From Amphiscolops sp. MND2022 (taxonomy: Eukaryota): DNA of 64,000 nucleotides. The stretch spans positions 51,648,001 through 51,712,000 of the forward strand of contig OZ076409.1 of NCBI GenBank assembly GCA_964187785.1, read 5' to 3'. The first letter of the stretch is position 1. Every line of letters begins with the position of its first letter. The notes below the pieces were generated by a model. The model ran no database searches and was not told the origin of the DNA. It was given only the letters and a program-made list of their open reading frames with translations. Below are positions 24,376 to 59,753 of this stretch, piece by piece. The position numbers were made by a program, and so were the translations under genes.

Positions 24376-24696
24376 TGTCGCAGTCCGCTCCCGGACTGGT
24401 TTGCGGCTGCAGACGAGTAGGATACGGACGTGGGCACGGCTGTACAACAAAATTGGCAAACAGGTATTTCAGATACTGACTCAAACTGTAGGTAATGATT
24501 AAAATAAACTGTGACTGAAAATGAAAATAGGTCTAGTGTGCGCAAATCTAAAAATGAAAATGGAAACAGAGAAACACTTAGCCAAAATGATTTCATACAT
24601 TTCCGGCAGGACGTTCCCATAACGCTGAATTAAACATTTTCCACCTGAAAATTAAATTAAAAGATGTCTTAGGAAAAGATCATAGACTAAACTAAA

Positions 24697-26594
24697 TGTC
24701 GCGACCCCAGAGGCGTCACGGGACACATACAACGGGAGGAACGCCTGAAGAAGAGAGTGAGGAAGTCAATCAGAACTGACCAGAATTACCATAAACAAAT
24801 CTAAAATAAAAAGGACAACAAACAGCTTGATATTATTTGAATAACACACAATCGTACATTCCCCTCCTCTGTGCTGTAGCTAAAATACATACATATGTAA
24901 ATAATTAAATAATAATAGTGAATGCAGTATTTGTTTAGTCAACCTAGCCAGTGCGCTGACTGAAATTAATTCAATCAACGCGTTGACTGGGGATTCGCCT
25001 CAGCTGAAGTAGCAAATTTCATTAAGCCAATTCATATTGACCAATCAGAATCGAGCGCAGTTGTTACAAATTGAATAATTGAGTCAACGTCCCAGGCAAC
25101 TTACCAGTCGACTGAAGCTGGGACGCTCGCTCAGTCGCACTACCTGAGTACTCAAATTATAATTAATCGATGCAATTTTCAAATGAGTTTGTCACAGCTT
25201 AAAAGAAGCTAAGTACCAAAAGAACACCTAATAAACGCCAATCAACGATATTTGAAGTATCATAATATGTTTAATCCACTTTCCATCTGAGTCAATCTCC
25301 CAGGCAAGGCGCTATTTTTCCTTAATGAAACAACAGCCTGGACAGATGATTAAAAATAGTTAATTGAAATGCAACTTCCAACCACCTAAATTGCAAAGCC
25401 GTCCTTGTTGATTATAATATATAATAATATTGTGATAAAATAACCCCCCCGTGCTAACGTTCACCTTCACATGTATTGTTCTGTTCATGTATAATTGAGT
25501 CAACCGCCTGGTCAACCGGCTAGGCTACTCGAAATGAAACATGTTACCTGGCGTTCATCCAGGATTTTTATTGTTCGGTTCAACTTAAAATGCCATTTGA
25601 CAGCCATAATTATCTGATTTAATGTAAATCAGTGCTGTTGATTTATTCATTTGAAGCTTTTCCCTTAATTTATTGGCAGTAAAATTTGGGATTATTCGAT
25701 GACAATTTCACTTTCCTTTCCCGCTTTAGTAGCTAGGTTCATGAAATTCAGTGCCGACTTTGGTTCGGCGTCTTGAATTGGCGGGAAGCTGAGAAGAAAG
25801 CGAAGCGGAATTGGGACTTCGGCAGGAAGTTGATTCCCACTTTTCCTTAAAAGTGAGATGACGCCGAGAGCCGAGTCCCGAGGATGTGGACCTGATTCAA
25901 AGTTTCCCGCCTCGGAAGGACGCCGAGCTGAACAAGGTGTGAATTCACGCGCGGGATTTATTCCGCGTGTCTAGCGTAAAGTATAAATACCTGAAGCGGG
26001 ATAAGGAAAGGACCAGAAGTAATTTCATGATTGTACGAACTACTTTGATCGTCTTTTCAAGTATTGTTTTGTAATTCTCTACTTTTGATAATTGTTGATT
26101 TCACCCGTTTGTTCAAAACCATTCGTCCGTAATCTTTGAACTTTTGGATATTATTTCGTGATCAACCAGCGTTGCTTGGGAATAGTTTACCTATAACTAT
26201 TATCAAGAAAATACTCAATTCAATTTTCCAAGCAGGAATACTTTCTTGAAAATGCCCGAAAAGTCACAGAAAAGAAAGCTAAGGAGTGACCAAGGGACTA
26301 GCCAAGAGGAAATTGAGAATTGTAACGCCTCAAATGACGAAAATGTTAGCCTCTCTGAACAAGATTTCGAAGATATCTCCAATAAAATCGAGAATCGTCT
26401 GTCCAAGCGTTTAAGAGACACTGAATTCGGACAGAGAGAAATTCTGAGATTGATCGAGAACTTAGCATCAAAAGTGGACAATCTGTCCAATTCTGTCTCA
26501 GAACAGTGTAGTTCTGCCGTACATTTCGAACTGGAAACGGACCCGATAGAAAATACAGGAAACGAAAGTATTAATAGGAACGCGAGTTCCAACA
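24697..26594 (+). mobile_element. Solo LTR E (1898 bp) of a related family
   Basis: Termini TGTCGCG...TCCAACA, TSD CTAAA (24692-24696 and 26595-26599), absent from B's 3' LTR. Contains TATA-like GTATAAATA (25981) and a gag-leader-like ORF. Confidence 0.9.
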
Positions 26595-26641
26595 CTAAAC
26601 AAGAATACAGGCACAAATTATCTCCAAACAGAGTACATTAG
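26252..26641 (+). CDS. LTR-encoded Gag N-terminal-like ORF of solo LTR E, reading out through the LTR end
   Basis: The MPEKSQKRK start parallels MSTTRSQKRK; coiled-coil-like segment; frame open across 26594. Confidence 0.5.
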   Translation: MPEKSQKRKLRSDQGTSQEEIENCNASNDENVSLSEQDFEDISNKIENRLSKRLRDTEFGQREILRLIENLASKVDNLSNSVSEQCSSAVHFELETDPIENTGNESINRNASSNTKQEYRHKLSPNRVH

Positions 26642-28077
26642 CTGAATCTAAAATGGAAAAACACTTTGAAATATATATAGAGAGATTACGCCTCGTCAAA
26701 ATAAGGCGATTTATTTGCGTTTGAACAGCATTTAAAGTGGTTTAGGACGCACGGATTGCGCAAAGCAAACAATACGGCAGTGAGAACTTGGCTACATGTA
26801 TATTTGTCGTCTATAGGGCGCAGACAAGTTTTGAAGGTATACTAAGTGACGTCACTGCCTCGTCTATGCATACCAAAATTCATTCCAATTATCCTCCTAT
26901 ATCACCCACTATGCTAGAAAATCAATCCGATTTACCGCCTGCGTGACGTCACAATACTCGTAACTAGCTGTTAACTTGTCTCAAAATATGCGTCAACGAT
27001 GCGGCAAACTTGGCAGAGTTCAGTATTGCCAAGAAAATGCGTCACAGTGACGATGACAAGTTTATGAAATTAGTTGGAAATAGGTAAATCTGTCAAAATA
27101 ACCGGTTTTATCCTCATGTTTAATTCGCAGCTTCATAAGGAAAATGATAATGGCTTTTCTTAATCCGCAATGCAGACGTTTCGTCAATGTTAAGCTATCT
27201 GAAATTTCACACTTAAAACATATCTGATATAGGTGTAGTATAAAATCCAGTTAGTGCGTTAGTTAGTCGTCATGCATTTTTTGACAATAGAGGATTCCTA
27301 CCCGGATATCTTTTAAATGAGATTTCACATGAAGTTAAGCAAAAGTCACAGTTTATACTCACGTTCAGTGCGGGTAAAATATATTTTGTACCCAGAAATG
27401 TATTTTCATAAGTTTGTACCTTTTACTTTCAATTTGGCAAATATGTACATGATAATTGTTGATGCAATCATCTTCTTATCTACGTTCCCCTAATGGGCTT
27501 GGGAAATGTTGTGCTGATGACGAAATTATAGTTGTGAAAGTGCTAATTGTTGTTATACTATTGGTTTTGTAAAATATGACGCAATTGGTGCGACAAACCA
27601 AGTTTTGTATCTGTTTTATTCTTTATTTTGTTGGAAATTCATGAATGTTAACTTTATTTCTATACTTGTGTTAATCGTCCAAAATATTCTCCTAGCATCG
27701 ATTAAATAATCCTAGTTTGGAATTAGTCATTGCATTTTTATCAAGTTGAAATTCAAAATCAGGTATTAGTTGTTCACGTCAGCGTCATCTCACGTCAATT
27801 TCCCGCGAACCAAAGCAGCAAAGCAGGGAACTATTTCCGGTTTGATAGACTGAAGTAATATCTACTTCCTGCTCGGGAGGAAGCAAAAGGACGCCGGAAT
27901 GAAATGATATGAATATGTGTGATGACTAATACTAAAAGTAGAACATCGTGTCTCAAATTTTGTCGAATTGTCGACGCACTTTTGGGATTTTGATGATTTT
28001 TTCACCGAAAAAACAGGAAATGACTAATCATTTTAAAGAATTTGGGAATATGTACGTGATCAAATGATGCTAGGAGG

Positions 28078-28090
28078 GTATATATAGGAA
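28078..28090 (+). promoter_or_regulatory. Putative TATA box of the LTR promoter
   Basis: GTATATATAGGAA ~160 nt upstream of the gag ATG; counterpart GTATAAATAT in copy C LTR (~57140, minus strand). Confidence 0.5.
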
Positions 28091-28243
28091 GTGCACATTT
28101 TTCTAAGGGACTCAGTCTTTTGCCAGTGCTACAACTTAGTTGTTTCAAACTTGCTGTTCTCAAACTATTCTCATCCTTCTAACCCTGTTGAAAATCAGAA
28201 AGTGAAAATTGAATTCTTCAAGAATAAATCTTTCTTCAACATC

Positions 28244-29686
28244 ATGTCTACAACACGAAGCCAAAAGAGAAAGAATACCCAGCGAGAAGCTGATGATAAT
28301 GTAAGTGAAGGCTTTGTATCGTCAATAAATACGGAAAATTCTCATCCTTTAGATCAAAACGTAGAATTAGCAGGTCCTTCGAGACCCAAGTCCCCAAGAG
28401 TAGAAAATAGTTTCTTGGAAAGCATAAGGCCCTCTCTGAAGGAGGAAATAACGTCCGAGATTAGGACTCTTTTGCTTGAGTCCCAAAAGGAAATGTTGAA
28501 ACTCTTGAGATCTGAAACGAAAGAAAACGTAAGGGATCACGTATCAGAAGAGCTAGAAAATGAAACAAGAAGCTTCTATACTCCGACGAAAACAGTGCGA
28601 ATTAATTCTACCCAAAACGAAGATCATAGCATAATTCGTAACATGGTGACAGGAGTTTTAAACGACTCCACCAATCAACCCAAGAGAACAAAGGTCCGAT
28701 CTCAAAGCCAACCCCCGTCAAAAGAACGCCCAGCAATAACGCGAACTTTGTTCGCCCCAGACCAAAATAACACCACGATGCTACCCATGCCAAAAGCTCT
28801 AACGGCATCACTCCCAACTTTTGACGGGAAATCCGAAAAATTCGAGCTCTTTGAAGACCTCTTCAGGAACAATATCAAAATGTATCGGCACCTTACAGAA
28901 ATACAAAAGATAAACTACTTCCACTCCCTGCTCCGGGGAGACGCCTTACAAGCTTTTTGCAACATTGAAGACTCGAAGAAAGACTCACTAGACGAAATTA
29001 TAACGATATTCGAACGACGATTTGGGGACTACCTGTCGATGGCAAAGGCTAGATGCGAATGGGACGCACTAAAATTTGACCCCTCGACACAAAAACTCCA
29101 CGAATTCCTGGATGTACTACAGAGAACTGCAAAAGAAGCCTTTGGAACAGAGGCACAGCAATTCATAGACAAGGCTATATACGCCAAAATGCCAGACCAC
29201 GTCAAGAAAATACTAAACCGCGCATACCTCGAAGACAAACCCTATAACGACATAGTACTTCACCTGGAAAGGGAAATGCGTCTCAATGGACTAGGAGCGC
29301 CAGACGAGGTAAGGTTAGTGCCCTTAAACAAAATTGAACCTGCCCAAACAAAAACTGAACCTAAACCAGTGGAAACTACCGCTCAAACCACTAAAAAAGG
29401 GTACTGTTTCTATTGTAACAAATTCGGACGTCATAAAGCTGAATGTCGTAAAATGAAGAGAGACAAATGGATGCAAACCCGAAGAAACAACGGACCAACC
29501 AACCACAGTGCAGGTAAACCACCCAAATGCGATACCTGCGGCAAACCCCACAAAACAGAGGATTGTTGGAACGGAGCCAATGCTGCCAACGACCCACGAC
29601 CTAAGCGTCACAACACACAAGAAAGTAAAAGGGACATCAACGTCACTCAATCAACAAACCAACCCGATGATGAATCAAAAAACTAA
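28244..29686 (+). CDS. gag: Gag (480 aa); the first 133 codons lie inside the 5' LTR
   Basis: Intact ORF with LPTFDGKSEKFELFEDLF, YFHSLLRGDAL and zinc knuckles CFYCNKFGRHKAEC and CDTCGKPHKTEDC. Confidence 0.92.
   Translation: MSTTRSQKRKNTQREADDNVSEGFVSSINTENSHPLDQNVELAGPSRPKSPRVENSFLESIRPSLKEEITSEIRTLLLESQKEMLKLLRSETKENVRDHVSEELENETRSFYTPTKTVRINSTQNEDHSIIRNMVTGVLNDSTNQPKRTKVRSQSQPPSKERPAITRTLFAPDQNNTTMLPMPKALTASLPTFDGKSEKFELFEDLFRNNIKMYRHLTEIQKINYFHSLLRGDALQAFCNIEDSKKDSLDEIITIFERRFGDYLSMAKARCEWDALKFDPSTQKLHEFLDVLQRTAKEAFGTEAQQFIDKAIYAKMPDHVKKILNRAYLEDKPYNDIVLHLEREMRLNGLGAPDEVRLVPLNKIEPAQTKTEPKPVETTAQTTKKGYCFYCNKFGRHKAECRKMKRDKWMQTRRNNGPTNHSAGKPPKCDTCGKPHKTEDCWNGANAANDPRPKRHNTQESKRDINVTQSTNQPDDESKN
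28644..28656 (+). promoter_or_regulatory. Primer-binding site TGGTGACAGGAGT (possibly tRNA-Leu type)
   Basis: Directly follows the LTR end ...TAACA; same motif in A, D and the 51-kb fragment. The tRNA identity is inferred. Confidence 0.8.
29677..29683 (+). promoter_or_regulatory. -1 ribosomal frameshift slippery heptamer A_AAA_AAC at the gag-pol junction
   Basis: Immediately before the gag TAA; the -1 frame is open (KLITPRLRFGETVD...) into ORF 29833. Confidence 0.8.
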
Positions 29687-32600
29687 TTACGCCGCGCCTG
29701 CGCTTTGGGGAAACAGTAGACGCGAGGGCATATTCTCCACAAGAACCCCCATTAACGTATACCAACGACACGACTGTAGAGTGCTCAGGCAGCCCATCAG
29801 AAGCATGGCTGAGACAACAAGCAATCGCATCTATGAAACGACACCCGCCACAAGAGGATCAAAAAGTAACACCTCCAAACGATCAGGATTACAGAAACGA
29901 TTGCCGACATCACGAAAAAACACCCTCTCAACCAATCATCACCACCAAAGAACCCGCTGCTCAGACCCAAGGAAACCCAGTTGAAAACGTCCACGACGCC
30001 TGCACTTCGTCACAAATGTCCGAGAAAGATACATACGGCTCCACCGGGTCACCTATCCTCCACGACAACTTCCCCACCTTCCTCAACTCAATTAAAGAAT
30101 ACGTAACTGAAAAAGATGGTAACACTTATATACCACTCCACTCAACAATAGTCCTCAAGAACAGAAGACGAATGCTTTACTTGCCATTGGAATTTGGGGA
30201 ATTAACAATGGACGGCCTTGTCGACTCAGGAGCGTTTATCAATGCCATGTCATGGTCCGATTACAACGCCATTAAAATGAACAGCGATAATTGTGTCATA
30301 AAGGAGTATCCACAACCTCCTTTCAAGGTCGAATGTGCAAACGCACAACTAGAGCAACCTATCGCCACTGCAGACATTCAATTCAATATTGGAACATACA
30401 CGTTCACTGACACCTTTGTCATACTATCAAAGACGTCATTCCCCATAATCGGACTGAACTTCATGAGAAACCACCAAGCAGTAATCGACACAGCCAATGG
30501 GACCATCACCTTCCCTCACGTCGAAATGACACTAGCCATGACAGATGAAAAGAAAAATTGTAACCCCAAACCACTCCAAATTATGGCTGAAGGATATCAG
30601 ACGTTGCCACCACAACAAACAACAACCGTTAATGCAATAGTCATAACCACCAATACAATCGACATCACAGGAGCAGTACAACCGCTCCCACAGTTCGATG
30701 AAACAGCCACCATCATCGTTGCACCAGCACTAGCCACAGCTCACAACAAACGAATCAACCTCCGAATAGCCAACTTGACAGATTTCCCGCACACCATAAA
30801 AAACCACACCAAATTGGCAGAATTACAAATCCTGAGACCAGAGGACACTAAACAAATACGACCTGTAGACGTCGCAACGCTGACCACCTTACAAGATCCA
30901 GATGACACGCACATGTATGTAAATGAGCTCATGAAATCCTCAAACGATGAACGAAACGATGAAAACCTCTGGTTCCTAACACCCGAAAACCCGGGAAATG
31001 AAGATGAACACACACCAATACAAAAACGAATATTTAAGGAAATCAGAGAACTCATAAAAAAAAGAACAACTTGATCCCACCAAAGACCCAGAATCAAGGA
31101 AAGAATTCCTCGACATGTTCAAATGGGAAGGATCACAGATTGAGGGAAACGACAAGAAACAGCTGGAGCAAACGATAGTTGAATACAACGACATCTTTGC
31201 ACGTCACAGACTCGACATCGGCATCAATAAAAGCTTCAAAGTAAAACTGACGCCAAAAGATGAACGACCCATATACACACAGAGCCTGCCAGTGCCGATC
31301 AACCTCAAGGAAGACCTAACAGTCGAATTGGCACTCATGCATAGATATGGCATAATCACGACACTACCATTTTCAAAATAAGCCAGTCCGAGTTTTGCAC
31401 AACGCAAACCAAACGGTAAACTACGTTTACTGGTCGACCTGCGAAAAATCAACGCACTGATATCTGACGATTACATCAACAACAACCACCCAGTCAGCAC
31501 CCTGTCAGACGCAGCCCAACACTTAGCTGGGAAAAGGCTGTTCTGTAAACTAGATTGCTCCCAAGCATACCACTGTCTGCAAATGGCTGACCAGAGATCA
31601 ATCGAAATGCTGGCATTCAACTTCGCAAGCAGAACGTTTGCATATAAACGCCTGGCACAAGGACTGAGCAGAGCATTGTCAGCATTCTCCAGCTTCTTGA
31701 GAGAATACTTGGACAAAGTAATCAAAGCTGACCAGTGCGCGCAATATGTGGACGACATTGGAATAGCCGCCAACTCCGTGACGCAACTGATACGGAACAT
31801 TCGAGCCGTCTTCGAATGCATCAGACAAGCAGGACTTAAACTATCTATCGACAAATGCCACTTTGGAGTGACTGAAGTTGAATTCCTCGGAAGAACAATC
31901 ACTCCGCAAGGAATCGCCCCCCACGACCATTAAATACAAAAATTCTTGGCAAATGTACGATTTCCGAAAACAAAAAAACAAGTACAAAGATACATCGGCT
32001 TTGTCAAATATTATCGCAACTACATCCCGCGATTATCTGAAAAACTACTCGGATTCTATGAGCTACTGAAAGCAGATAAACAGATCAAAATCACTGAAGA
32101 ACTACTCGACCATTACAAGGCGATCAACGCAGCGCTGTCGCAAGCCTGTGGATTGGCTCTCAAACAACCAATTACAGGACGACAATACGTCTTAATGACG
32201 GATGCCAGTTTTCCAGCTTCTGGCTACGCATTAATGATCGAAGAGGACAATGACAAAAAAATCAATTCCAAAAAGAAAACATTTGCCCCAGTTGCATTCG
32301 GATCGAAAGTATTTTCCCCAGCTCAACTGAAAATGTCTATCTATTGCAAAGAATTCTTGGCAATTTCTCATGCCTTCCTAGAATACAGCCACATCCTATG
32401 GGAAGCAACCCTACCGACCCTAGTGATGACAGACAACAGATCAGTAACAAGATTTTTTCAAACAAAAGCGATTCCACCCACACTGTGGAACGCATGTGAC
32501 TACATCCTACAATTCAATTTCCATATCATGCACGTAGCGGGAACGCAAAATACTGCGGCAGACTTCCTCTCAAGAATTGACCTCAATCCCAAGGAACGAG

Positions 32601-34627
32601 TCGAACTGAAGATCCGCGATGATATCACAATACGACCAATACAAGCCAACCTCCAATCGACAGACGTCGCAGATGAAGAACAACTATTTTTTCTTCCCGA
32701 TGAGACCATCGAAACTGAAGAGGAAATCCTACTACGAAAAGAACAAGCTAGATAAAACGCGCACGATGAAGCGCCGGCGAAAATAAAAATGGCCATGCAA
32801 GAAACCACCCCAATACCAATAAACAAAGCCTCATATACCTTTGGCGCAATTAAAGAAGATGCACGCATTAGAGTCGAACAAGACTCAAACTTAGTCTTCA
32901 AGGCAATCAAAAGGAAACTGATTTGCGAAGAATACGACAAACATCTTCTACAAACTGACCCGACAGCTAAACGTCTTCTAGTCCACGAAAACAGACTAAT
33001 AGTCAAAGATGGCATCCTAATGCGTAAATATTACGGTGAATGTGGCCAAGTTACGCACCATCAAATACTCATCCCTGAACACTTGATCACAGAACTTCTG
33101 AAAGCAATCCACGGACAAATGGGAAAACACCCAGGAATCACAAAGATGATCCAAGAGTGTAGATCTAAATACTACTACCCAGGGCTAGCGAAACGCATCA
33201 AACAATAGGTACAACAATGTGAAGACTGCATCAGATATAAACGAATCAGTAACGCTCAAATCAAACCGAAAATGATCAACAACACAGATTACGTCCTAGG
33301 ACCGGAAGACATCCTAGAGATTGACATATTACCTAACCTACCAAACTCTGCGGGATACCAGAATATCGTCACAATGATAGACGTGTTTTCGTTTTCGCGA
33401 TATCTATTTGCCTACCCAACACAGAACGCCACAGCGAGGACGATTGGCCGATGTATTGTCGATGTCATGACAAGGCACGCATATCTGCCGACATTAATCC
33501 TATCGGATAAAGGCTCCCAATTCCGATCAGAAGTTGTTGCAGAAATAATGCAAATACTGGAAATACAAATCAGTCATGCTTCCACTAAACAGGCTCAAAC
33601 AATCGGAATACTGGAAAGAACTCACGCCTCAATCAAAACGGCACTGAAAATATCGACGGGTAAACGACGCTCAATGTGGCATAAATATGTCCAAATCGCA
33701 GTGATGAACTATAACACAACCTACCATGAAACGCTAGGCTGCGAACCTTCCACAGTATTCCATGGACGAATACCGTACAATATACTGGACCTAAAATTGG
33801 GCATCAGACCAAAATGGAAAACTTCATCTAATTCCGACCTAGTCGAACAACTACAAAAACAGATTGACGAAGTGCGTGCCACGGCAAAGGACAATATTAT
33901 GTTGTCTTATCTCAAATACAAAAAGTACTATGACCGCAAAGCATCTGCAGCCCCACTGAAAACAAACGATTATTGCTACATACTCAACCCGAAAGCCGAC
34001 AACCAATCGACAAAATTCGCATTCCAAGATTGCATCTGGACAGGACCGTATATAGTGATAAAAGTACTTCCAAATAACAACTATACGATCCGAAAAATCG
34101 GCACGAGATACACAAAAACGCTACATCGCATTAGAATACGACCTTACATGCCAGAAAAACGATTGCCTGACGTCACAGTACGGGCAAACGAATATCTTCC
34201 AGATCCGGACGTCAAAGTGTCGCACAACGAATGGTACGCTGTATCGTGGGAAATGGATTTTGGCAAACAAATAGACGAACACGAAGCGACAAGAAGTTCA
34301 GAAAACAATCAGCAGATAATCACACAAGAAGTGGCGAACACGAATGACGACACGATGACGCAACAATTATCAGACAATCAAAATGACGACACACATGACG
34401 TGGCACCGACGTCTCCAGATTTTTCAAACCTCACTACTGACGTAGGGGATAATCCATATATACGACGTCCCCCACCCACTGAAAGTCCACCTATTCCCCC
34501 AAAATCACCGCCTACAGTTGTCGGTTATAATCCGAGGCAAACAGCAAAATACAATTTACGACCTAATCCTAAACCTAACGCTAATCCTGACTTCAGAAGA
34601 CTTGACGCTATCACTATGACTCAATAG
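29680..34627 (+). pseudogene. pol: Pol (protease, RT, RNase H, integrase) with one frameshift and four premature stops
   Basis: LVDSGA, LDCSQAY, QYVDDIGI, VLMTDAS, HHCC, EIDIL/SDKGSQF/ILERTH and WTGPYIV. Lesions: A-run near 31060 and stops at 31379, 31931, 32753 and 33206. Confidence 0.95.
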
Positions 34628-34864
34628 AAAAGCAAATATCAGGAGTCCAGACCGAATCGATCTGACTATTTTCAATTCATAGCATACTACGACCATTCTT
34701 TTTTCTCCTTTGATTACCAATATTTTGATTCTCCAAGACAAATTACTTTTAATCAAGAAAATAATATCTAACAAACTGATAAGAACAACATAACAAAACG
34801 CCCGAAGACGCAAAGAAATTATACAAAAATCAACAAACAGTTTACAAATCGAGTACGGCAAATT

Positions 34865-37800
34865 CTATTGTTTCTTTGTGGCGGCATCAGAACTCTTCCG
34901 GGTGGCCCTCTTCGCAGACACTTTAGATGAATCAACAGCTCGCTTCGACCCAGATCCAGTGTTTTTCTTTCGACCCAATAATGAGCCAACACTGCTATAT
35001 AAATGTCCCTTCTCAGGAGTTGCAGCAACAGAAGAACCCACAACAGATGATGATGGACTCTCCGAACATGACACAGTTGACACGTCGCCCCCCTCACCAG
35101 CTAGCATTTTTCGCCCCCGCTTATTGGCATGACGCAGATTAGAATACGACTCCCCTTTCTTGCGACTAAGGAAGGCATTAAACAATTCAAGATATCGTGT
35201 AACAAATGACTCCTGACCACCGCAGCAGATACGCTCCCAAGGATCATAGGAAGCCAAGTTCATGAAATCCTGAGCCCCATTTATAGCATTTCGGACGCTA
35301 TCCATCGTATGTTTCGTAAAGAAGGCTTTCTGCTTGTAATTTGATGACAAAACACAACTCTGCACTCCACGAATACACGAAGTAACAGTCCAATACGGCA
35401 CAGCACAACCCGAAAGGTTAATGTCTACGTCAGGGTATTTCTGTCGAGGTTTCAGGACAACTAAACAGCACAATTCAAACACCCGGCACAGTTTCTTGCG
35501 GGCCAGAAATGAGTAATCTCCCAGCAGATAAGAGACGACATCAGGAATATTCTCAGCGACCTCATCACTGGTGGCATGACGACCTCGGACGTCCACAACA
35601 AATGTACGCAACTCTTCAACAGCTGACTTGCACTCTACGTCTGAAATAACTCCGCAACGCTCCAAACGTCGAGCCAATTGATTAAACAAGTCAAACACAT
35701 ACTTGTCATCCCCTTCCAACAGGAGTCCGGGGCAGAAACAAAATAAGCCACTCGTAAACTCAGACGACGCTGCCTGTTGTGCCAAGATCAGTTCCACAAA
35801 ACGATCGATAAATTCACGACAACGATCTTGAAAGTCACGACCCTCACTCCCTTTAAATTCACGCAGCATTGCACCAAAATCATAGTTTTGCAAGAATTCG
35901 GCTGTTGGTATTACCTCAAACTGAGACAACTTGGACACGTCCATATACTCTTCCCATGCATTGACATTTAGCAGCGACGAAACATGACGACTACGTGACA
36001 ACAGACAATACACTAGTTGACATAGTTCCATATACGCATGGAAGCCATAATCTGCGCGTCTTTGCTGCTGCTTCTTGAAACAAACTGCGTCTAAACACAT
36101 CAACCCTACTACATCTGCCTTTCAACAAAACGAGACGAAACGCAGACGACAACTTACAAAGTTCTAGGACATGTTTGAGCAGACCCAGACGGAACACATT
36201 CGTAGTTTCGGTGAAAACCAGCCAGTCCACACCTCGCATCTGAAACAAACCCAACTACCTCAAATCTCACTACCAAAATAACCCAACTTTGCCAACCCCA
36301 ACAGACCTCAAAGAAAAAACAAAAAGAGGGAAGGATACAAAAAAAGAGAAAAAACAAAACTTACTCTGTCAGAAGAGCTCTTCAGGTGCCGAGCCCCAGT
36401 GTAGCGAACATATTCTTTGACGAATTTCCACACAAGAATCAGTTCCGAGACGAAGCCACACAAGTCAGCAAAGGGTACCCGCCCAGCAACACTACAACGA
36501 CGAACGACGGTCACGTCCTCCGTCCACGGCTCTTGGAGTGCCCCGCGCAGACGTAACACCAGAAAGTCAACCATTGAAGTCACCTCGAGCATGCCGAAGA
36601 CCTCTCGATGAGCCTCTCGGAAACATTGCAGAAAGGCCTCCTCAGAGAATTCCTGACCCAAAACGAACTGCCGACCATCAACTCGATTGTCACTAAGTAC
36701 ACGCAACAAAGACGCACTCCCTCCTTGACACGACATGGGCAATTGGCATGACACAATACTGTCAACCACACGAGACAAACCAGCCAGCTCTGAGTTGGGG
36801 ATTTTCTGTCAGACGCCTCAACATGGACACAGACACAAAACAGCTCATGACCATCCCAAGTCTGTACATAACAGCTATGCGACGTCCCATCATCTACGAA
36901 AAACACACTGTAGTCGCGGAAAGCAGTCACACGTGCGATCATTGATCGAAGTACACGAGGGAACAGGGCTTGACAGATCAGCGACTAAAACAACAAATTA
37001 CCAACGCTCAACACACGGAAATCCCAATACCTACAGACTCATTCAAACACTAGAATCTGCTTCAAGCCAACGATACAACTACGATACACCCCCCCTAAAA
37101 AGCATGATAAAACATACGAAAATACTAACCAACGACTCTTCTCGACTCCACTTTAGACTGTACAGAGGATTTTCCGGCCCCAAAGTAGCACGAAAACAGC
37201 CCCACAACTTTCGCAATAAAGTGTAGCTGCCACCACTGCGCAGGAGTTCCAGTGAACAAGTCACTAGTGTCAACAAAGGAACCGATGAATCGACCTGAGT
37301 GCATGCGGGCAACAGATCCTCCGGGAAGCTGAATCCCTCGGCTTTCCCCTTGCAGGGACGACTTCGATAATCCTCCAATTGCGTATCTGTCAGCTCCATT
37401 GGATCCATCAGCCGATTGAACACAGGCAAATTATTTTGAACGCGATAAGTGACGTCCAATTGCCAATGCCGCTTGCCAAAGAAATGTCGACTGAACTCCA
37501 ATGCACCACGAGACTACATTGAAACGTCACGGTGACAAATCATACAGAAGAAATGTTTGTCACAGCCAGTACTGGACCCGCTGACAAACAACTGGTAGAT
37601 GGGGTTATCACCTATCATGTCGCGACGAAGACGTTTCCGCATACTGTACACTCGTTTTCGTTGCCGCTGAGGTGACGAATTCTCCTCTAAACTGGCCTCG
37701 ACACGACTCACGACCTCCTGAAACCCTATAAACACAAAACTTCCTTTAATCAAAAGAAATCACGTCGTACGTGGACCACCAGCATACAATCCCAAGATCA

Positions 37801-38980
37801 CGACTCGGGATATAAAACTACCCGGAATTTCCCTCAATTCAACTACTAACAGAGAGGATGAACAAGACAAAAATTCGCAATCGAAACTACTCAAATACAA
37901 CAATACTCACGAGCAACAAAAGGCTCCACTGTCCGACTCTCCAATTCAGAAGCCACAATCTCTCCCAATCTAGCAGCCTGCTGTGGCGTACAAGGCAAGG
38001 ATGCATCAGGAACAGCCTCTTCATCAGACGTCTCAAGCTGGAAATCACTCCGCTGCAGTACTGTTCCACTCTTGTCCACCCGACGTTGTTTAGAAGTCGA
38101 CTGGACCATCGCATCATCACTGGGTGACACCACAGTAACTATAAACACAACACCCAAAGCCCAATTACAAAGAACGTCAACATGACACAACCCCACCCAA
38201 ATACACATACACCATAAATACTATCAATCTACACACAAGAACTTACCATGTTTAATGACAGGCGATGCAGTCTGACTCCCAAATGTTGGCTCAAACCCAG
38301 GCAAATATGCAGTAAATCGTGGGGAAGGCGTTTGTTGGGCACTGCGGGAATTTCCCCCTCTCCAGTTTTTCCCGGCCGGGGGGAGGAGCCTCACCTACGT
38401 GAGTCGGAGGGGTACAGACACCGACAACAGGAGACTCTGGTGTTGGCAGCCTCGCTGTTTCTTCAGGAGCCCCAGTAACTTTATCCTCGACTCTGCCAGA
38501 AACCAATTTAGACAAAGGGACATCAAGATCAGCTTGCGGTGACGCAGGCGGATTGAGCATCCCAGAAACAGTCTCCAAAGGAACAATCGTACCACTCTCT
38601 AGGGGTATAACCCCAACGGAAGAAAGATCAGCTGGTAGCGGAGCAGTTTCAAGACCAGAAAGAGTGTGAAGGGAGGCAGGAGTGACGTGAACAGCACCCT
38701 CTAGGGAAGAAACAAGAGCCGATCCTGGCACTAAAACGAAATCCCACATTCGACGCGTCAGAAAAACTAAGCTATGAAAATACAAAACAGAAAAGGCCTA
38801 TCTGTCAAAAGTATATTTCATGGAAGCTTAAAGGAAAGTAGGGATAGCAAACCAACCAGGTGCCGGCCGGACAATTCGATTATCACTCTCACTGTCACGA
38901 ACATCTCCTTCCGAAAATGCAAACTGCGTCTCGTTGCCACTCACAGCTCCTGGATCAATACGACCACGGGACGTAGACAT
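34865..38980 (-). pseudogene. Antisense 7-exon cargo gene of copy B (~1120 aa, degenerate hAT-transposase-like); exons 38980-38857, 38730-38247, 38138-37911, 37725-37130, 36984-36365, 36239-36158, 36090-34865
   Basis: All introns are GT-AG with phases matching copy C. Three lesions: frameshift near 38360, TAG at 37514, and a 1-nt deletion near 36803. Confidence 0.88.
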
Positions 38981-38999
38981 TGCAAAGCGATGAATCTGA

Positions 39000-39420
39000 A
39001 AAGTCAGAGGTGAAAACAACAACCGAAAATTTGATGTCATCAAAACGGTGACAAAACATAAAGTTGTCTAATAACCAACGAAAATGGCGTCGACATAACG
39101 TCGACAAAAAAGGTTATCAGGATTAGGAAATTAATCCCATTTCCTAAAATGACGTCATCAAAACGGTGACAAAATCAGAAGTTAGCTAAGCTAACAAAAT
39201 GACTTCAGCATAACGTTGACAAATTTGACTAAACGAATTATTTTAATTTGCAGCCAATAAAAACTCGACGTCGTCATAGCGACAATAATAAAGACTGAAA
39301 ACGATTAAAATGATTGTTTAACCAATCAGAATAGAGGGATTTATCCCAATATTCGCCTTAATCCCTAATAATCCTAAATTCATTGTGGAACAATCAAAAC
39401 GAAGAAATCAGCTGATAAAG
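39000..39420. promoter_or_regulatory. Putative bidirectional promoter between the antisense gene and ORF3
   Basis: Head-to-head ORFs; TGACGTCA and GACGTC palindromes, CCAAT boxes (~39254, ~39322) and an internal duplication; motifs conserved in copy C. Confidence 0.6.
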
Positions 39421-39427
39421 AAAGAAG

Positions 39428-40186
39428 ATGAGCAATCTCCTTGACATTTATGAATTAATCGACATATCCTCGTCAAGTGAGGAAGAAGGTGAAATTGAAA
39501 GGGGATCCACCCCGCTACCAAGAGACAGTCAGGTGAACCCCAGGATAATATTTGAAATTCCCCACTCGTCAGCAGAGGCGACGGCAGACGATGGAGAATA
39601 CCTCGATTTGTCATTAGACTCACTGGAAACTGACTGTAAAAGAATGAAGCTGAGCGATTCTTATACCAGCTTCGAATCGGTGGAATCTGGGGAGTATCCT
39701 CATTCAACTGACTCTGGAGAAGCACCAGCCGACTCTCCTGAAAGCCTTGATGAACAAGAAAAGGGGGAAGATAACAGCAGCCTAAGTTCCGGAGTGTTCG
39801 TTGTGGAAAGACATTATGCTCACAGCTCTAAATCAGTAACGAGCACGAACGTTGCGGACTATTTAGAACATGTTGTCCGAGAAGATGCAAGTTCTTTTTT
39901 CGTCACTCCTCCGGGACCATTAAGAAGGGTCAATCTTCGATTGATAAGCCCACTGAACGACCTAGAAGAAAAAGGGACAGCAGCAACAAGTTCTAAAAGG
40001 AATAACAACTACAAACAGTTCCAGCATCAGCCGTTCCAGTTCTGCCAACCCGGGAGAGCCTTTCGCCCCATGACAGTGGCCCTGTCACAGTCCGCTCCCG
40101 GACTGGTTTGCGGCTGCAGACGAGTAGGATACGGACGTGGGCACGGCTGTACAGCAAAATTGGCAAACAGGTATTTCAGATACTGA
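39428..40186 (+). CDS. ORF3: 252-aa acidic, Ser-rich protein with a CGC..GxGRGHGC tail encoded by the first 104 nt of the 3' LTR
   Basis: Intact; colinear homolog at 59022..59753 in copy C. Confidence 0.85.
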   Translation: MSNLLDIYELIDISSSSEEEGEIERGSTPLPRDSQVNPRIIFEIPHSSAEATADDGEYLDLSLDSLETDCKRMKLSDSYTSFESVESGEYPHSTDSGEAPADSPESLDEQEKGEDNSSLSSGVFVVERHYAHSSKSVTSTNVADYLEHVVREDASSFFVTPPGPLRRVNLRLISPLNDLEEKGTAATSSKRNNNYKQFQHQPFQFCQPGRAFRPMTVALSQSAPGLVCGCRRVGYGRGHGCTAKLANRYFRY

Positions 40187-42444
40187 CTCAAACTGTAGTT
40201 AATGATTAAAATAAACTGTGACTGAAAATGAAAATACGTCTAGTGTGCGCAAATCTAAAAATGAAAATGGAAACAGAGAAACACAGCCAAAATGATTTCA
40301 TACATTTCCGGCAGGACGTTCCCATAACGCTGAATTAAACATTTTCCACCTGAAAATTAAATTAAAAGATGTCTTAGGAAAAGATCATAGACTAAACTAA
40401 ACAAGAATACAGGCACAAATTATCTCCAAACAGAGTACATTAGCTGGATCTAAAATGGAAAAACACTTTGAAATATATAGAGAGATTACGCCTCGTCAAA
40501 ATAAGGCAATTTAATTGCGTTTGAACAGCAATTAAAGTGGTTTAGGACGCACGGATTGCGCAAAGCAAACAATACGGCAGTGAGAACTTGGCTACATGTA
40601 TATTTGTCGTCTATAGGGCGCAGACAAGTTTTGAAGGTATACTAAGTGACGTCACTGCCTCGTCTATGCATACCAAAATTCATTCCAATTATCCTCCTAT
40701 ATCACCCACTATGCTAGAAAATCAATCCGATTTACCGCCTGCGTGACGTCACAATACTCGTAACTAGCTGTTAACTTGTCTCAAAATATGCGTCAACGAT
40801 GCGGCAAACTTGGCAGAGTTCAGTATTGCCAAGAAAATGCGTCACAGTGACGACGACAAGTTTATGAAATTAGTTGGAAATAGGTAAATCTGTCAAAATA
40901 ACCGGTTTTATCCTCATGTTTAATTCGCAGTTTCATAAGGAAAATGATAATGGCTTTTCTTAATCCGCAATGCAGACGTTTCGTCAATGTTAAGCTATCT
41001 GAAATTTCACACTTAAAACATATCTGATATAGGTGTAGTATAAAATCCAGTTAGTGCGTTAGTTAGTCGTCATGCATTTTTTGACAATAGAGGAAACCTA
41101 CCCGGATATCTTTTAAATGAGATTTCACATGAAGTTAAGCAAAGGTCACAGTTTATACTCACGTTCAGTGCGGGTAAAATATATTTTGTACCCAGAAATG
41201 TATTTTCATAAGTTTGTACCTTTTACTTTCAATTTGGCAAATATGTACATGATAATTGTTGATGCAATCATTTTCTTATCTACGTTCCCCTAATGGGTTT
41301 GGAAAATGTTGTGCTGATGACGAAATTACAGTTGTGAAAGTGCTAATTGTTGTTATACTATTGGTTTTGTAAAATGTGACGCAATTGATGCGACAAACCA
41401 AGTTTTGTATCTGTTTTATTCTTTATTTTGTTGGAAATTCATGAATGTTAACTTTATTTCTATACTTGTGTTAATCGTCCAAAATATTCTCCGAGCATCG
41501 ATTAAATAATCCTAGTTTGGAATTTGTCATTGCATTTTTATCAAGTTGAAATTCAAAATCAGGTATTAGTTGTTCACGTCAGCGTCATCTCAGCGTCAAT
41601 TTCCCGCGAACCGAAGCAGCAAAACAGGGAATTATTTCCGGTTTGATAAACTGAAGTAATATCTACTTCCTGCTCGGGAGGAAGCAAAAGGACGCCGGAA
41701 TGAAATGATATGAATATGTGTGATGACTAATACTAAAAGTAGAACATCGTGTCTCAAATTTTGTCGAATTGTCGACGCACTTTTGGGATTTTGATGATTT
41801 TTTCACCGAAAAAACAGGAAATGACTAATCATTTTAAAGAATTTGGGAATATGTACGTGATCAAATGATGCTAGGAGGGTATATATAGGAAGTGCACATT
41901 TTTCTAAGGGACTCAGTCTTTTGCCAGTGCTACAACTTAGTTGTTTCAAACTTGCTGTTCTCAAACTATTCTCATCCTTCTAACCCTGTTGAAAATCAGA
42001 AAGTGAAAATTGAATTCTTCAAGAATAAATCTTTCTTCAACAACATGTCTACAACACGAAGCCAAAAGAGAAAGAATTCCCAGCGAGAAGCTGATGATAA
42101 TGTAAGTGAAGGCTTTGTATCGTCAATAAATACGGAAAATTCTCATCCTTTAGATCAAAACGTAGAATTAGCAGGTCCTTCGAGACCCAAGTCCCCAAGA
42201 GTAGAAAATAGTTTCTTGGAAAGCATAAGGCCCTCTCTGAAGGAGGAAATAACGTCCGAGATTAGGACTCTTTTGCTCGAGTCCCAAAAGGAAATGTTGA
42301 AACTCTTGAAATCTGAAACGAAAGAAAACGTAAGGGATCACGTATCAGAAGAGCTAGAAAATGAAACAAGAAGCTTCTATACTCCCACGAAAACAGTGCG
42401 AATTAATTCTACCCAAAACGAAGATCATAGCATAATTCGTAACA
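40083..42444 (+). repeat. Copy B 3' LTR (2362 bp)
   Basis: TGTCACAG...CGTAACA, followed by TSD TGGAC. Confidence 0.95.
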
Positions 42445-42449
42445 TGGAC

Positions 42450-43010
42450 CTCTACCCAAAAGCTTACCATTCCTACACTGCCATACCAAAAGAAACAACA
42501 CCAAACCAATGCGAACATGTGGTGGCGAAATTTGTCCAATACAAAAAATGACAAAAGACATCCACCTGTCAACTATGACGAACCGCAAGGAAATATTACC
42601 ACAATACCGTGATCAACTCGAAACAGAAATAAAAGACATTATCTTAACAATCTTTAGGCAATCGGACAGAATGCTATCACAGAGATGACAAAAACGGTCA
42701 GAGACAAATAATCGAGTTCTCTTCCACTATGTTAATTTTACACGCTGTCCTGTTTACACTTCACACCAGAAAAAAAGTACACCATAGCACGGCCGATTTC
42801 TTTGGCCTGAAGCGAGAAGACGGTGAATCCGCAACAGACGTCTGTAAAGAGATCTTAGAAGTAGTGAAGAATTCGAGACAATACCCGCGGCTGACCTCCT
42901 GGGACTAAAATTCCTCTCACTCATTAGCAAGTCTATCGGCGACTACGACCTGAAAAAAAATTAGAAAAAACGATCTGTCCATAGAAGCCATAACCGAAGC
43001 TAAATCACGG
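42450..43010 (+). pseudogene. Remainder of the degenerate gag interrupted by copy B
   Basis: Fragments NANMWWR, FVQYKK, EILPQYRDQLETEIKD, ADFFGLKREDGES and SKSIGDYDLKK in shifting frames. Confidence 0.55.
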
Positions 43011-44195: not shown

Positions 44196-44905
44196 TGTAA
44201 CGGCTGCTTGCCCTTTTCCTGCGCTGAGGCTTGACAAGCTTTACGCCGCCCTGATCCGTTGCTTAGTACTGTGGACCGTTACTAAACAAATCCTGGTTTT
44301 CTTGTTTTAAAGGACTGTATCTTTTAGCTTGATGGGTCCGATGTGACCCGTGGAATCTCCTGCGATCCCTCTTTGCACTGAATTGGATCCGATGTGATCC
44401 TGCACACACTTCCCTCACAGTATCTTCACGCGCTCCGGCTCTCCAACTATGAGAGTAGCTACTTAGTCGCTCTAACTCTAGCGAAAAGTTGTGAAGATTG
44501 AGAAGTAGATTAATTAGTCTCGCGGTCCTGAGACCCAACTTGACCATAGCTATACAGTGGAGAAAATCTCATAATAATTAATACATCAAATTTGGGTAAT
44601 TCATGGGGTCCGACCTAGGTCACTTTGGGTGTTAATTGCTCTGAACCCAGGGGCGATACGGGGTAGGGTGTTCAGAGTGAAAAGTTAGGGGAACACCACC
44701 ACTATATGTGTGCCAAGTTTCAAGGTTGTTGAATGAGTGGTTCGTCGGGACGGGGGGTGGTGTTTTATTGGGATGCCCCATTTCTGGTGAGACTTGTAAT
44801 TTTCAAACTAAAATCTTGACAAAATTTCTAAGAGTTTTGAGTTATAAGTTTCATCAGTCACGTTCGAATTTGAGTTTCTGATCTCGCAATTGACTGGCGC
44901 CAACA
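44196..44905 (-). repeat. BEL derivative 3' LTR
   Basis: Direct repeat of 47898-48608 with TG...CA ends. Confidence 0.95.
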
Positions 44906-47229: not shown

Positions 47230-47574
47230 TTGTTCATATGACTCTTTTGTTCCACTGAGGGCTTTCGAACTTCACAATTGTTTCTTGTAGGTTTTGTCAC
47301 TTATCCCAACTTTGCAATTTCTCAGAAACAAAGTGTCAACTGCTCAATCCGGTAATCAATCGCCAATTCTTGAAGAATCAACCCAATACTGTCGATTATA
47401 CTTGCCTTCTTTGACGAACTTGATTTTTTCAGTGGATCGTGTCCCTCTGACTTGATCCCTTTGCTTTACCTGGTGGATTTACTTGCAATGACGTCTTACA
47501 CCAGATCTTTGCTTCAATCAGGAATACGTTCCCAAAGAATACAATTCGTCTCAAAACTAGAAATGATGCACAAA

Positions 47575-47760
47575 TACCTCCAGAGTGCCGCTAAAGCCCA
47601 ACTCCCAGAGTACACAATAGTTCAATCTCCCAGAGACACAGTAGCCCAATCTCCCAGAGACACAGTAGCCCAATCTCCCAGAGTCACAATAGCCCAATCT
47701 CCCAGAGTCACAATAGCCCAATCTCCCAGAGTCACAATAGCCCAATCTCCCAGAGACACG
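47575..47760. repeat. 24-bp tandem repeat (~7 units) in the leader of the BEL derivative
   Basis: GCCCAATCTCCCAGAG(A/T)CACA(G/A)TA units; a second short array of GTTGTCCGGGTCGTCCACCA units lies at ~47830-47888. Confidence 0.9.
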
Positions 47761-47897
47761 AAATCAGATACTCCAAGACCCAGTTCTTGGGCAATCTTCT
47801 GTTGTCTACCAACGAGTCGTCTTCTTCTAGTCCGGGTCGTCCACCAACGAGTTGTCCGGGTCGTCCACCATTGAGTTGTCCGGGTCGGCGGACCAAA

Positions 47898-56995: not shown

Positions 56996-59125
56996 TTTGT
57001 AGAAAAGTTTGATCTTGAAGAATTGTATTCCTTTCAAAGATTTTTCTGACAAAGTAGAACAAGGTGAGAGTGAAATTGAAAATTCAACTGAATTATACAA
57101 TTGCAAAAGACTGAGTCCCTTAATCATCAAATCCTATCATATTTATACCCTCCCAGCATCATTTGATCACGAACAAAACCCTAATTTCCCTTGAACAATT
57201 AGTCATTTCCTGTATTTTCGATGAAAAAATCATTTTGTTCCCAACTTTACGTCGACATTTCGTCAATTTTTGAGACACGATGATCTTCATTTAGTGTTAG
57301 TCATCAAATCTGATCATATCATTTCATCTCGGCGTCCTTTTGCTTCCTCCCAAGCAGGAAGTAGATATTACTTCAGTCTGTCAAACCGGAAATGCTTCCC
57401 TGTTTTACTGCTTTGGTTCGCGGGAAATTGACGCTGAGATGACGCTGACGTGAACAACAAATACCTGATTTTGAACTTCGCTTTGATAAAAATGCTATGA
57501 CTAATTCCAAAATAGGAATATTTGAACGATGCTAGGACGATATTTTATGAATTTGGACTCAATCCTATGCTAGAGATGAGAATGAAATCATGATATGAAA
57601 ATAATATTTGTTAGCGACTTTGTCATGTCGTGTCAAACACGACAAGATTTACAAAATTAACAGCAACGTTTGTTAAATGACAACACCAACATGACGTAAA
57701 TAACTGGACAGCAACGAATGGATTAATATAGAAAACGTGATTACAGCCACAAATACAGCGCTCAATGTTGTAGAATACGAAAATGCAAAATACATGAAAA
57801 ATACATTTCTGGTACATAATAAGCTTCTAGTTGGAGAGAATAAACTGTGACTTCCTAATTAATCTACTGTGGAATCTTGTAATAAGATGGTTTATGCACG
57901 GAAGTTCTCTTCTTGTTAAGAATACATGATTGTTACTTAACGTGAGGTTGAAATTATCCTACATGTGTCAAAACGCATCCTAAATTGGGACCTTAAACCA
58001 TGGAAAATCGACAATACGTTCATTATACAATTTGCAACAGTCTGCAATTTTCTTTCCTTAAGAAATAACGGCTTTTATGCGATGAAAACTTGACTAAATT
58101 CAGCAGATTCATTCACTTTATTCAATTTCATAAACTTGTCAACGTCATGTTGACGAGTTTTCTTGACAGAGTTGAATTTCATAAACTTGTCAACGTCATG
58201 TTGACGAGTTTTCTTGGCAGAGTTGAATTTCATAAACTTGTCAACGTCATGTTGACGAGTTTTCTTGGCAGGGCAGAGATTTTGACTAGTTTGACGCAAT
58301 GCTGCCGAGTACTTTAGAAATGAGTCTCTCGCTAGCTACCGGAGCAGTGACGTCACAGTGGCGGTAAATTGGAATGGTTTCTAGCAATGCTATTAGTATA
58401 GGCGGATAATTGGAATGATTTCCTGGTACGCTTATGCGAGGCAGTGACGTCAATTGGTATGCCTTCAAACTCGTCTGCGTCTTACTGACGACAAATATAC
58501 ATGTACTCTTGTTTCTTTCGCCGCTTTGTTTACTCAGCGCAGTATTGACGTCCTAAATCACTTTAATTGCTGTTCAAAAGAGTAATTAAGCTGTCTTTCT
58601 AAGAAAAGGCTTAACTACCACGGTGTGTTGTCTCACTGTAATTTCCTGATTTAGGTCCGAATGAAATGTAATTTCTCGGGATTAGTTTTGATGTATTTTC
58701 ATTTAGATTAGCTTATGGTCTCTTTATTCTTGGGATAGTTTTATTCTGATTTTCAGGTTGTGAATGTTTCATTTGTCGTGGTTGACTCGTCCAGCCAAAC
58801 ATGCGTGAAATCATTTTGGATTATTTTGCTTCCTTATTTCATTTCCGCCCAAATTTGCGCGCGGTAAATGTGTATTTTACATTTCCGGTACTATTTTATT
58901 CGATTTTGTGAGAGCATGAAAAATTTAGAACGCGTTCACTAGTTTTATTTGGGATTTTTGCTAGGCAAAAGTATTATTGCGTTTCAAGTCACAGTTTATT
59001 TAAATTTAGTTAGAGTTTGAGTTAATAGCCAAAATACCTTTTCGTGAGTCTTGCGGTGCACCCATGTCCACGCCCAAAACCAACTCTCCTGCATCCGCAA
59101 TCCAGTCCGGGAGCGGACTGTGACA
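56599..59125 (-). repeat. Copy C 3' LTR (2527 bp)
   Basis: TGTCACAGTCCGCTCCCGGAC start at 59125, CGTAACA end at 56599, no PBS after it. Confidence 0.9.
58127..58272. repeat. 51-bp tandem repeat (~3 units) in copy C LTR
   Basis: TTCATAAACTTGTCAACGTCATGTTGACGAGTTTTCTTG(A/G)CAGAGTTGAAT units. Confidence 0.9.
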
Positions 59126-59753
59126 GGGCCACTGTCATGGGGCGAACGGCTTTACCGGGTTGATAGAAGTCGAACGCCTGTTGCAGGTGATTTTCGCGAG
59201 TGTAGTTTTCCTTGGCTTCGTCTAGCGCTAATTTCGGCTCCTCCAGATCGTTTAGAGGACTAGTTGTCAGCAGATTTATTCTTCTCAGCGGACCAGGGGG
59301 CGTGACAAAGTATGAAGAGGCGTCTTCTTGCTGCACCTTCTCCAGATATTCGGCTACTTTGCTACTTGTTACTGATTCGGTTTGTACAGCTGGGGCTTCT
59401 ACTATGAATATGTCCGAAGACAAGCTTTCATCGGGGCTTTCCGGGGAGTCAGCAATAACTTCTTCGGTCGACTCAGAGTGGGGGTATTGTCCCGATTCTA
59501 CTGTTTCAAAACTAGAGAACGACTCACTCAGCTTCATTTTCTTGCATTCTGTTTCTAGTGAATTTACCGATAGGTCGAGGCATTCCTCTTCATCTGCGTT
59601 CGCCTCTGCTGATGAGTTCAGAATTTCGATGACCAACCCCGGATAGGCTCTGCTGTCACTAGGTATTGGGGTAGACGATCTTGTTATTTCGCCCTCCTCC
59701 TCGCTTGATGACGAGATGTCGATCAGTTCGTAGATATCTAACAAGTTGTTCAT
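59022..59753 (-). CDS. ORF3 homolog in copy C (243 aa)
   Basis: LLDIYELIDISSSSEEEGEI, LETECKKMKLS, YFVTPPGPLRR and RPMTVALSQSAPGLDCGCRRVGFGRGHGC are conserved with 39428..40186. Confidence 0.85.
   Translation of the reverse strand: MNNLLDIYELIDISSSSEEEGEITRSSTPIPSDSRAYPGLVIEILNSSAEANADEEECLDLSVNSLETECKKMKLSESFSSFETVESGQYPHSESTEEVIADSPESPDESLSSDIFIVEAPAVQTESVTSSKVAEYLEKVQQEDASSYFVTPPGPLRRINLLTTSPLNDLEEPKLALDEAKENYTRENHLQQAFDFYQPGKAVRPMTVALSQSAPGLDCGCRRVGFGRGHGCTARLTKRYFGY

Follow-up and report, generated by a model that had tools for sequence, protein, structure and literature searches.

In plant Ty3/gypsy retrotransposons, extra open reading frames lie between pol and the 3′ LTR, some in sense orientation and env-like and others antisense, as in Grande (gene23), RIRE2 and Retand (TRP28) (PMC7264820, PMC11963269). 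Neither SUMO nor SUMO-interacting motifs (SIMs) are mentioned in the accessible text of these papers, and the main text of an Arabidopsis atlas of transposon products (PMC13547354) likewise contains no occurrence of SUMO. Among animal LTR retrotransposons, Cer1 of C. elegans encodes CERV, a nuclear, phosphorylated accessory protein (PMC10309623). Few transposon-encoded anti-silencing proteins are known; the VANC proteins of VANDAL DNA transposons are proven examples (PMC6719617, PMC13547354), and, as far as the accessible text of the former goes, no transposon anti-silencer acting against the piRNA or KRAB pathways was known in 2019. In both pathways the last step is that SetDB1 is recruited in a SUMO-dependent way and, in the fly, transposon silencing proceeds through SUMO and the SIM-dependent recruitment of SetDB1/Wde (10.1101/533091). 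SIMs are carried by host proteins such as PIAS, RNF4, MCAF1 and Daxx (PMC3901395, PMC3395311). Titles and the opening lines of abstracts, in a search whose coverage left out supplements and most subscription journals, described no SIM-bearing accessory protein of a retrotransposon.

The window analysed here, a 64-kb stretch of a 1.07-Gb animal genome, contains two related elements, B and C, each with an open frame that we call ORF3 (Table 1). Element C runs outward from 59125 on the minus strand, and the window ends before it is complete. The LTR pair and target duplication of B, a PBS-like TGG start and a pol order of PR-RT-RH-IN identify it as Ty3/gypsy, and ORF3 belongs to a Ty3/gypsy LTR retrotransposon family of hundreds of copies. 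As the initial annotation had noted, pol and the antisense gene of B are broken, the former by four stops and one frameshift and the latter, in its exons, by one stop and one frameshift; gag has no breaks.

Table 1. Coordinates of the features discussed, as positions within the window
Feature	Position	Strand	Remarks
Element B	24376-42444	+	LTR pair, 5-bp target duplication
5′ LTR, element B	24376..28643	+	carries 1.9-kb insertion; 98.1-98.6% identical to 3′ LTR
gag and pol, element B	28244..34627	+	order protease, RT, RNase H, integrase; pol broken here
Spliced antisense gene, element B	34865..38980	-	first conserved ATG 38980; exon blocks ~37729-37118, 36984-36362, 36100-34865; broken
Conserved non-coding region between ORF3 and antisense gene	39028..39427		CRE 39150, CCAAT 39252 and 39320, TCATT 39380
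ORF3, element B	39428..40186	+	252 aa; net charge -24 over residues 1-130 (acidic N-half) and +8 over 201-252 (basic tail)
SIM-like block	39455..39487	+	residues 10-20; LIDISSS, a SIMa match, followed by EEE
R-x-S-T-P	39500..39514	+	residues 25-29; both clades; likely phospho-site
KRMK, NLS-type basic cluster	39638..39649	+	residues 71-74; 65/68 clade I
VFVVE, second hydrophobic-acidic block	39794..39808	+	residues 123-127; F-x-V-E kept in both clades
FFVTPPG...SPLNDLEE	39896..39970	+	residues 157-181; proline-directed sites, L-x-D-L core
3′ LTR, element B	40083..42444	+	2362 bp; target duplication directly after
C-x-C...G-R-G-H-G-C tail	40109..40150	+	residues 228-241, inside 3′ LTR; G[RK]GHG in both clades, last Cys not
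AATAAA	40210..40215	+	just past ORF3 stop; 18/22 clade I copies, 2/24 clade II
ORF3, element C	59022..59753	-	243 aa; element C 3′ LTR starts at 59125

Further features of the elements and their surroundings were observed. The gag gene starts 400 nt inside the LTR (28244-28643, 42045-42444) and its frame continues through the LTR end and the PBS, and of the 11 5′ halves retrieved, 8 have a single open frame across the PBS; the LTR-encoded part of gag is under selection (pN 0.125, pS 0.59). The insertion in the 5′ LTR of B (24697-26593) has TGT...ACA ends and is likely to be a solo LTR of a related family. Ahead of the 3′ LTR (40060-40082 in B) no clear polypurine tract is seen in B or C, and other subfamilies have a short purine run. 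Elements of the family are often inserted within the antisense gene region of other copies (loci L077, L082, L087 and L091). Elsewhere in the window there are a pair of 1.5-kb repeats on the minus strand (16864-18355 and 19912-21395), 98% identical and with LTR-like ends, accompanied by a tandem array of 58 bp; the broken tail of an ORF3 adjoining this pair (21451-21557); a 331-aa ORF whose C-terminal part is hydrophobic and which has no real Pfam match (22362-23357, minus strand); and a BEL/Pao-like remnant in which 713-bp direct repeats flank a 791-aa ORF with DUF5641 (44196-48611 and 44854-47229, minus strand), with a 24-bp tandem array.

The ORF3 frames of B and C are both open, as had been claimed, and their products are 64% identical. 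The 3′ LTR of B begins within codon 219, so that residues 219-252 (34 codons) are encoded by the LTR. Although ORF3 occupies the env position, an env or env-like reading is rejected: the N-terminus is acidic and hydropathy over 19 residues peaks at 0.79 in B and 0.65 in C and does not exceed 1.42 among 20 clade I representatives or 1.05 among 24 clade II proteins, in keeping with the reported lack of a signal peptide or transmembrane segment. An AlphaFold2 model built on 28 sequences gives a mean pLDDT of 49 with a single helix at 140-153 and a pLDDT of about 50 in the SIM region, and the protein is predicted to be disordered. ORF3 of B and C found no match in Pfam (best E 0.049 over 28 family members and 0.099 over 12 clade II members), searches of PDB sequences gave a best E of 0.15 and, in the second, nothing, and neither the model nor Pfam gave a RING, a protease domain or an RNA-binding fold. 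The conserved islands listed in the initial annotation are present in the B and C proteins, but LDLS is not well kept among relatives, being exact in 32/68 full-length proteins and 6/20 representatives.

That ORF3 of B is intact beside a broken pol had been offered as evidence of function, a point that does not hold: with seven breaks in about 8.6 kb of aligned gag, pol and antisense coding DNA, a stretch of 756 bp should carry 0.62 on average, and an unbroken frame of that length is therefore about 54% likely by chance. Since intactness in B is no evidence, the case for a real gene rests on dN/dS. This ratio is 0.20 in the B subfamily (24 of 27 copies, three having been dropped by the frame filter), 0.17 in another subfamily (16/16 copies), 0.11 in 11 clade II copies and 0.07-0.33 in six of seven cross-lineage pairs, the seventh being saturated; before the LTR, nine subfamilies give a pooled pS of 0.79 vs a pN of 0.32. 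Compared across six elements, ORF3 has a pN of 0.30 and the last antisense exon one of 0.34, whereas that of pol is 0.04. The frame might instead be kept open by constraint on the DNA or by chance, without encoding a functional protein, and the chance-level intactness of B, as well as codons 219-227, fixed by the LTR end with synonymous variation of only 14% in clade I and 0% in clade II, would fit this; those codons barely vary, and the ALSQSAPG block that they encode is held as the DNA end of the LTR. In every subfamily tested, however, synonymous sites are saturated while the amino acids hold, and Rfam has no match within 38700-42500. For most of the frame this explanation is already refuted by dN/dS, and we regard it as scarcely credible overall, whereas ORF3 is almost certainly, on this comparison of copies, a real functional gene under purifying selection. 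Found in the interval between pol and the 3′ LTR in most copies and conserved under selection, it is an additional ORF in the sense used for such elements.

A genome search for ORF3 gave 3559 first-look candidates, and 139 of the 150 that were scored were free of stops, a figure biased toward copies with the highest scores and not to be read as a rate of intactness. A protein database gave 117 relatives at 31-94% identity, all of them ENA entries; a profile search of 1.84 billion proteins returned 130 matches, all of at most 244 aa, and the ten clusters looked up were again all ENA. The source genome contains a locus that matches P0211 at 100% identity. Because all kin fall within one genome or ENA assemblies, these homologues do not represent independent origins. 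A second, divergent form, clade II, was found by synteny. From 150 matches to the antisense exon 20 were picked, unfamiliar lengths being favoured, and in 18 of these loci ORF3-like DNA adjoins the exon (in one as a tail fragment only); nine have a form that the profile of the first form, clade I, barely sees. Clade II has at least 150 copies in the source genome, outside which it was sought by exact look-up only, and is homologous to clade I (hhalign 98%) at a mean identity of 27%. As the profile search missed it, still more distant relatives may be missed too. The motif counts below refer to 68 of 122 clade I proteins that passed a full-length filter, to 20 representatives of these at <75% identity and to 24 clade II proteins chosen mostly from stop-free rows. 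The two clades have in common I11-D12-I13-S14-S15, E18-E19, R25-x-S27-T28-P29, F124-x-V126-E127, the block at the LTR end, G236-x-G238-H239-G240 and scattered sites, and at identical residues in the motif blocks the codons differ in 49-72% of cases. The N- and C-halves have been exchanged in frame between subfamilies, P0013 and P0046 being 92% identical in one comparison vs 51% in the other, which suggests that the protein behaves as modules. Such half chimeras (P0013/P0046 and P0034/P0079) were later multiplied.

Over the 400 nt upstream of the ORF3 ATG, nine subfamilies are 76-88% identical, with 60% over the last 50 nt and at most 49% beyond -700. Within this region the proximal CCAAT box is present in 22/22 copies and the distal one in 21/22, both occur in 20/24 clade II copies, CRE-like sites are likewise conserved, and a TCATT-type element lies at -37 to -70 in 21/22 copies; a TATA box is absent. 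No conserved splice acceptor was found on the sense strand before ORF3, the pyrimidine share of the last 25 nt being 0.20-0.56. On the opposite strand, the first conserved ATG of the antisense gene lies 448 nt from that of ORF3 and heads a homologous peptide in 16/22 copies. The antisense exons have GT/AG-type ends and adjoin ORF3 in 19/20 loci, so the linkage of the two genes, which stand head-to-head, is tight; on the simplest reading the region between them is likely a promoter common to both. A TTTTCAG before the antisense ATG resembles a splice acceptor and a conserved donor was not found for it, and the antisense gene may therefore start at another place; TTCAGATT is read as a likely acceptor rather than as an antisense initiator.

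The antisense gene is also present in element C, from 60201 upward on the plus strand. It has a Cys/His zinc-finger-like exon and, by eye, a likeness to hAT proteins. Its last exon gave a model with a pLDDT of 51, no fold match (Z ≤5.4), Atlas scores below 0.9 and no match in PDB or Pfam, and these fold and profile searches neither confirm nor exclude a hAT origin. A 17-bp motif, GTC-N11-GAC, is repeated in the intergenic regions of B and C and in the LTR of C (39089-39220, 58138-58256 and 59902-60216), with 11 matches vs 0.16 expected for a pattern chosen after the copies had been seen, and it is a candidate binding site for the antisense protein.

We turn now to what the ORF3 protein may bind. 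Published patterns distinguish SIMa, SIMb ([PILVM][ILVM]DLT) and SIMr motifs, the last written as [DSE]{3}[ILVM]x[ILVMF]{2} (PMC3395311). A SIMa motif at residue 10 is found in B, in C, in 52/68 full-length clade I proteins and in 12/20 representatives, compared with 4-7% of shuffled sequences and 0/31 antisense exon proteins, and in 23/24 clade II proteins vs 3.4% of shuffles. Codons under the block vary at 58% (clade I) and 47% (clade II) of identical residues, and IDISS is the longest block common to both clades outside the LTR end. Some caution attaches to these figures, since about 20 patterns were tried overall and either SIM pattern arises in 11% of shuffles; eight of the 20 representatives miss SIMa, including a distant subfamily with a proline after the core, and strict SIMb occurs in 0/68. 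Of the two SIM-like segments previously proposed, the N-terminal one thus fits SIMa in both clades, but the second, at VFVVE, fits SIMr in C and in only 28/68 clade I proteins, in none of the 24 clade II proteins and not in B. A lack of family-wide conservation had been named as grounds for rejecting the idea, which the SIM survives because IDISS/SIMa is kept across two clades that are about 27% identical. By these counts it is the best-conserved protein motif of ORF3. Acidic flanks raise SIM affinity and the ORF3 core is close to the VIDLT of PIAS (PMC3901395). A SUMO attachment site is not conserved in ORF3 (2/20 representatives), and the host genome has a SUMO gene whose nearest named relatives are from acoels (83% and 80%), which makes an acoel the likely host. 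Judging from the motif, ORF3 probably binds SUMO through its N-terminus.

The presence of a SIM is equally compatible with a co-repressor and with an anti-repressor. Many SIM proteins, Daxx for example, are co-repressors, and it may be that ORF3 binds SUMO in order to recruit repressors and damp the element outside permissive cells. The same SIM evidence would serve, and elements are considered to tend toward self-control over blocking host defence (PMC6719617). On the other hand, the family reached a very high copy number, and the PxDLS motif for the co-repressor CtBP, named earlier as a candidate partner, occurs in 0/68 proteins and is rejected. We judge such self-restraint unlikely.

Proline-directed sites raise a further possibility, namely that ORF3 is a phospho-regulated, degradable protein that ties the element to dividing stem cells, with the SIM serving only to localise it. 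S/T-P sites number 5.8 per protein vs 3.3 in shuffles, S-T-P is found in both clades and F-x-T-P in 19/20 representatives, and a promoter with tandem CCAAT boxes and no TATA would suit this role. The pattern [ST]P[RK][KRM][IV]xF occurs in 14/24 clade II and 35/122 clade I proteins at differing positions, but B and C are without a full CDK site. The NLS, Polo-box (at R-x-S-T-P), Cks1, Fbw7, RVxF, CtBP (PxDLS) and SHP readings of ORF3 all follow generic patterns, which weakens Cks1, Polo-box, Fbw7 and RVxF as arguments for a timer; Fbw7 and RVxF moreover appear in only about half of the proteins. The basic cluster of clade II lies further down the protein, and the clade I pattern is seen in only 3/24. 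The APC/C D-box has Arg at P1, Leu at P4, an acid at P6, a hydrophobic residue at P7 and Asn at P9 (PMC5717348). L-x-D-[IV]-T-N in 15/24 clade II proteins and S-P-L-N-D-L in clade I fit P4, P6 and P7, yet the Arg at P1 is missing (0/24), as is the Asn at P9 in clade I. Given these gaps, we think a cell-cycle timer improbable.

The C-terminal tail is LTR-encoded, as the initial annotation stated, but a fixed Cys/His metal site is not supported. Residues 228-242 are held at the protein level, with 62% codon variation at identical residues, and the constant part is G[RK]GHG in 23/24 clade II proteins and GR[GR]HG in 61/68 clade I proteins. All four candidate ligands are kept in 48/68 clade I and 0/24 clade II proteins; the last Cys is lost in the lineage with the 173-member cluster (P0035) and in all 24 clade II proteins, whose tail instead has CC. 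A fixed zinc knuckle is therefore unlikely, and a CCHC-type zinc site, for which no fold is predicted, was rejected; metal binding by three tail ligands, or between chains, would still be compatible with the counts. A basic tail conserved in both clades could instead bind the RNA of the element and, in the manner of CERV or Rev, aid its export or poly(A) read-through, for which CERV provides a precedent (PMC10309623). The AATAAA, which lies about 130 nt inside the LTR, would shorten the full-length RNA of 18/22 clade I copies, although it is present in only 2/24 clade II copies. With no RNA-binding fold predicted and the SIM block left unexplained, RNA handling seems a poor prospect. With a SIM near its start and, at the opposite end, a G-x-G-H tail that may resemble an SHP box, ORF3 could also be an adaptor that couples SUMO-marked proteins to removal by p97 or a ubiquitin ligase. 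This we consider very unlikely, because the residue after the tail glycines is not hydrophobic and there is no RING or protease domain. Wss1, the model for such an activity, combines SIMs with an SHP box (PMC4559962).

Our preferred, if tentative, reading, for which we would put the chances a little short of even, is that ORF3 is a SUMO-binding nuclear adaptor that protects transcription of the element from SUMO-dependent silencing. ORF3 would be made from its own short mRNA, whose start would lie in the CRE/CCAAT region, itself likely the driver of the antisense gene too, and its basic cluster would bring it into the nucleus. There the hydrophobic core and Ser/acidic tract would dock on SUMO, an interaction that phosphorylation would strengthen, and activity or turnover may be timed by the numerous S/T-P sites. 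By occupying SUMO on chromatin proteins, ORF3 might keep away a SIM-bearing silencer of the SetDB1/Wde type that these would otherwise recruit; the silencing pathway in this model is that of the fly, of which the SUMO gene has been found in this host. The antisense protein, which probably binds DNA, could confer family specificity. That the two proteins work together, as the initial annotation had also suggested, is possible but on the unlikely side, and we are more doubtful still about a full two-gene counter-silencing cassette under one bidirectional promoter, in which a disarmed DNA-transposon protein would find the repeated motif of the element and ORF3 would supply a SIM decoy. Even without anti-silencing, ORF3 is an old and unnamed accessory protein, assembled from motifs, of an animal retrotransposon with no env gene. 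As it is a small protein with a five-residue motif and hundreds of natural variants, the question is testable in ordinary cell assays.

SIM proteins are also made by viruses, ICP0 and IE2 being examples. Compared with SIM-bearing host proteins, ORF3 shares a hydrophobic core followed by Ser/acidic residues within a disordered region, but the likeness is one of motif only, with no ligase domain and no homology found (PMC3901395, PMC3395311). The last 34 codons of ORF3 overlap the LTR. Retroviral nef and the sag gene of MMTV are accessory frames that run into the U3 of the 3′ LTR, and the likeness of ORF3 to these is confined to the position of the frame. The extra ORFs of plant elements occupy the same interval, are family-wide as ORF3 is and, according to the accessible text, have a function that is open there too, and Grande gene23 is driven by a promoter of its own, with a product that is nuclear (PMC7264820, PMC11963269). 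ORF3 differs from them in its animal host, in being a sense frame without a membrane segment that stands head-to-head with a spliced antisense gene, in overlapping the LTR, and in being built of short motifs without a Pfam match. CERV resembles ORF3 by description; its mRNA is spliced and it serves to export genomic RNA, whereas ORF3 likely has its own promoter (PMC10309623). VANC, like ORF3, is a transposon accessory protein that evolves faster than the core genes (for ORF3, pN 0.30 vs 0.04 for pol), and the repeated DNA motif in the element of ORF3 is a further likeness to the VANC system; VANC, however, is a folded DNA binder that acts on DNA methylation in plants, while ORF3 is predicted to be disordered and its effect is putative (PMC6719617, PMC13547354). 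If the two-gene cassette outlined above is real, it would represent an antagonist, encoded by a transposon, of the SUMO/SetDB1 step in piRNA and KRAB silencing, a class that, on the accessible text of that survey, was undescribed as of 2019 (PMC6719617).
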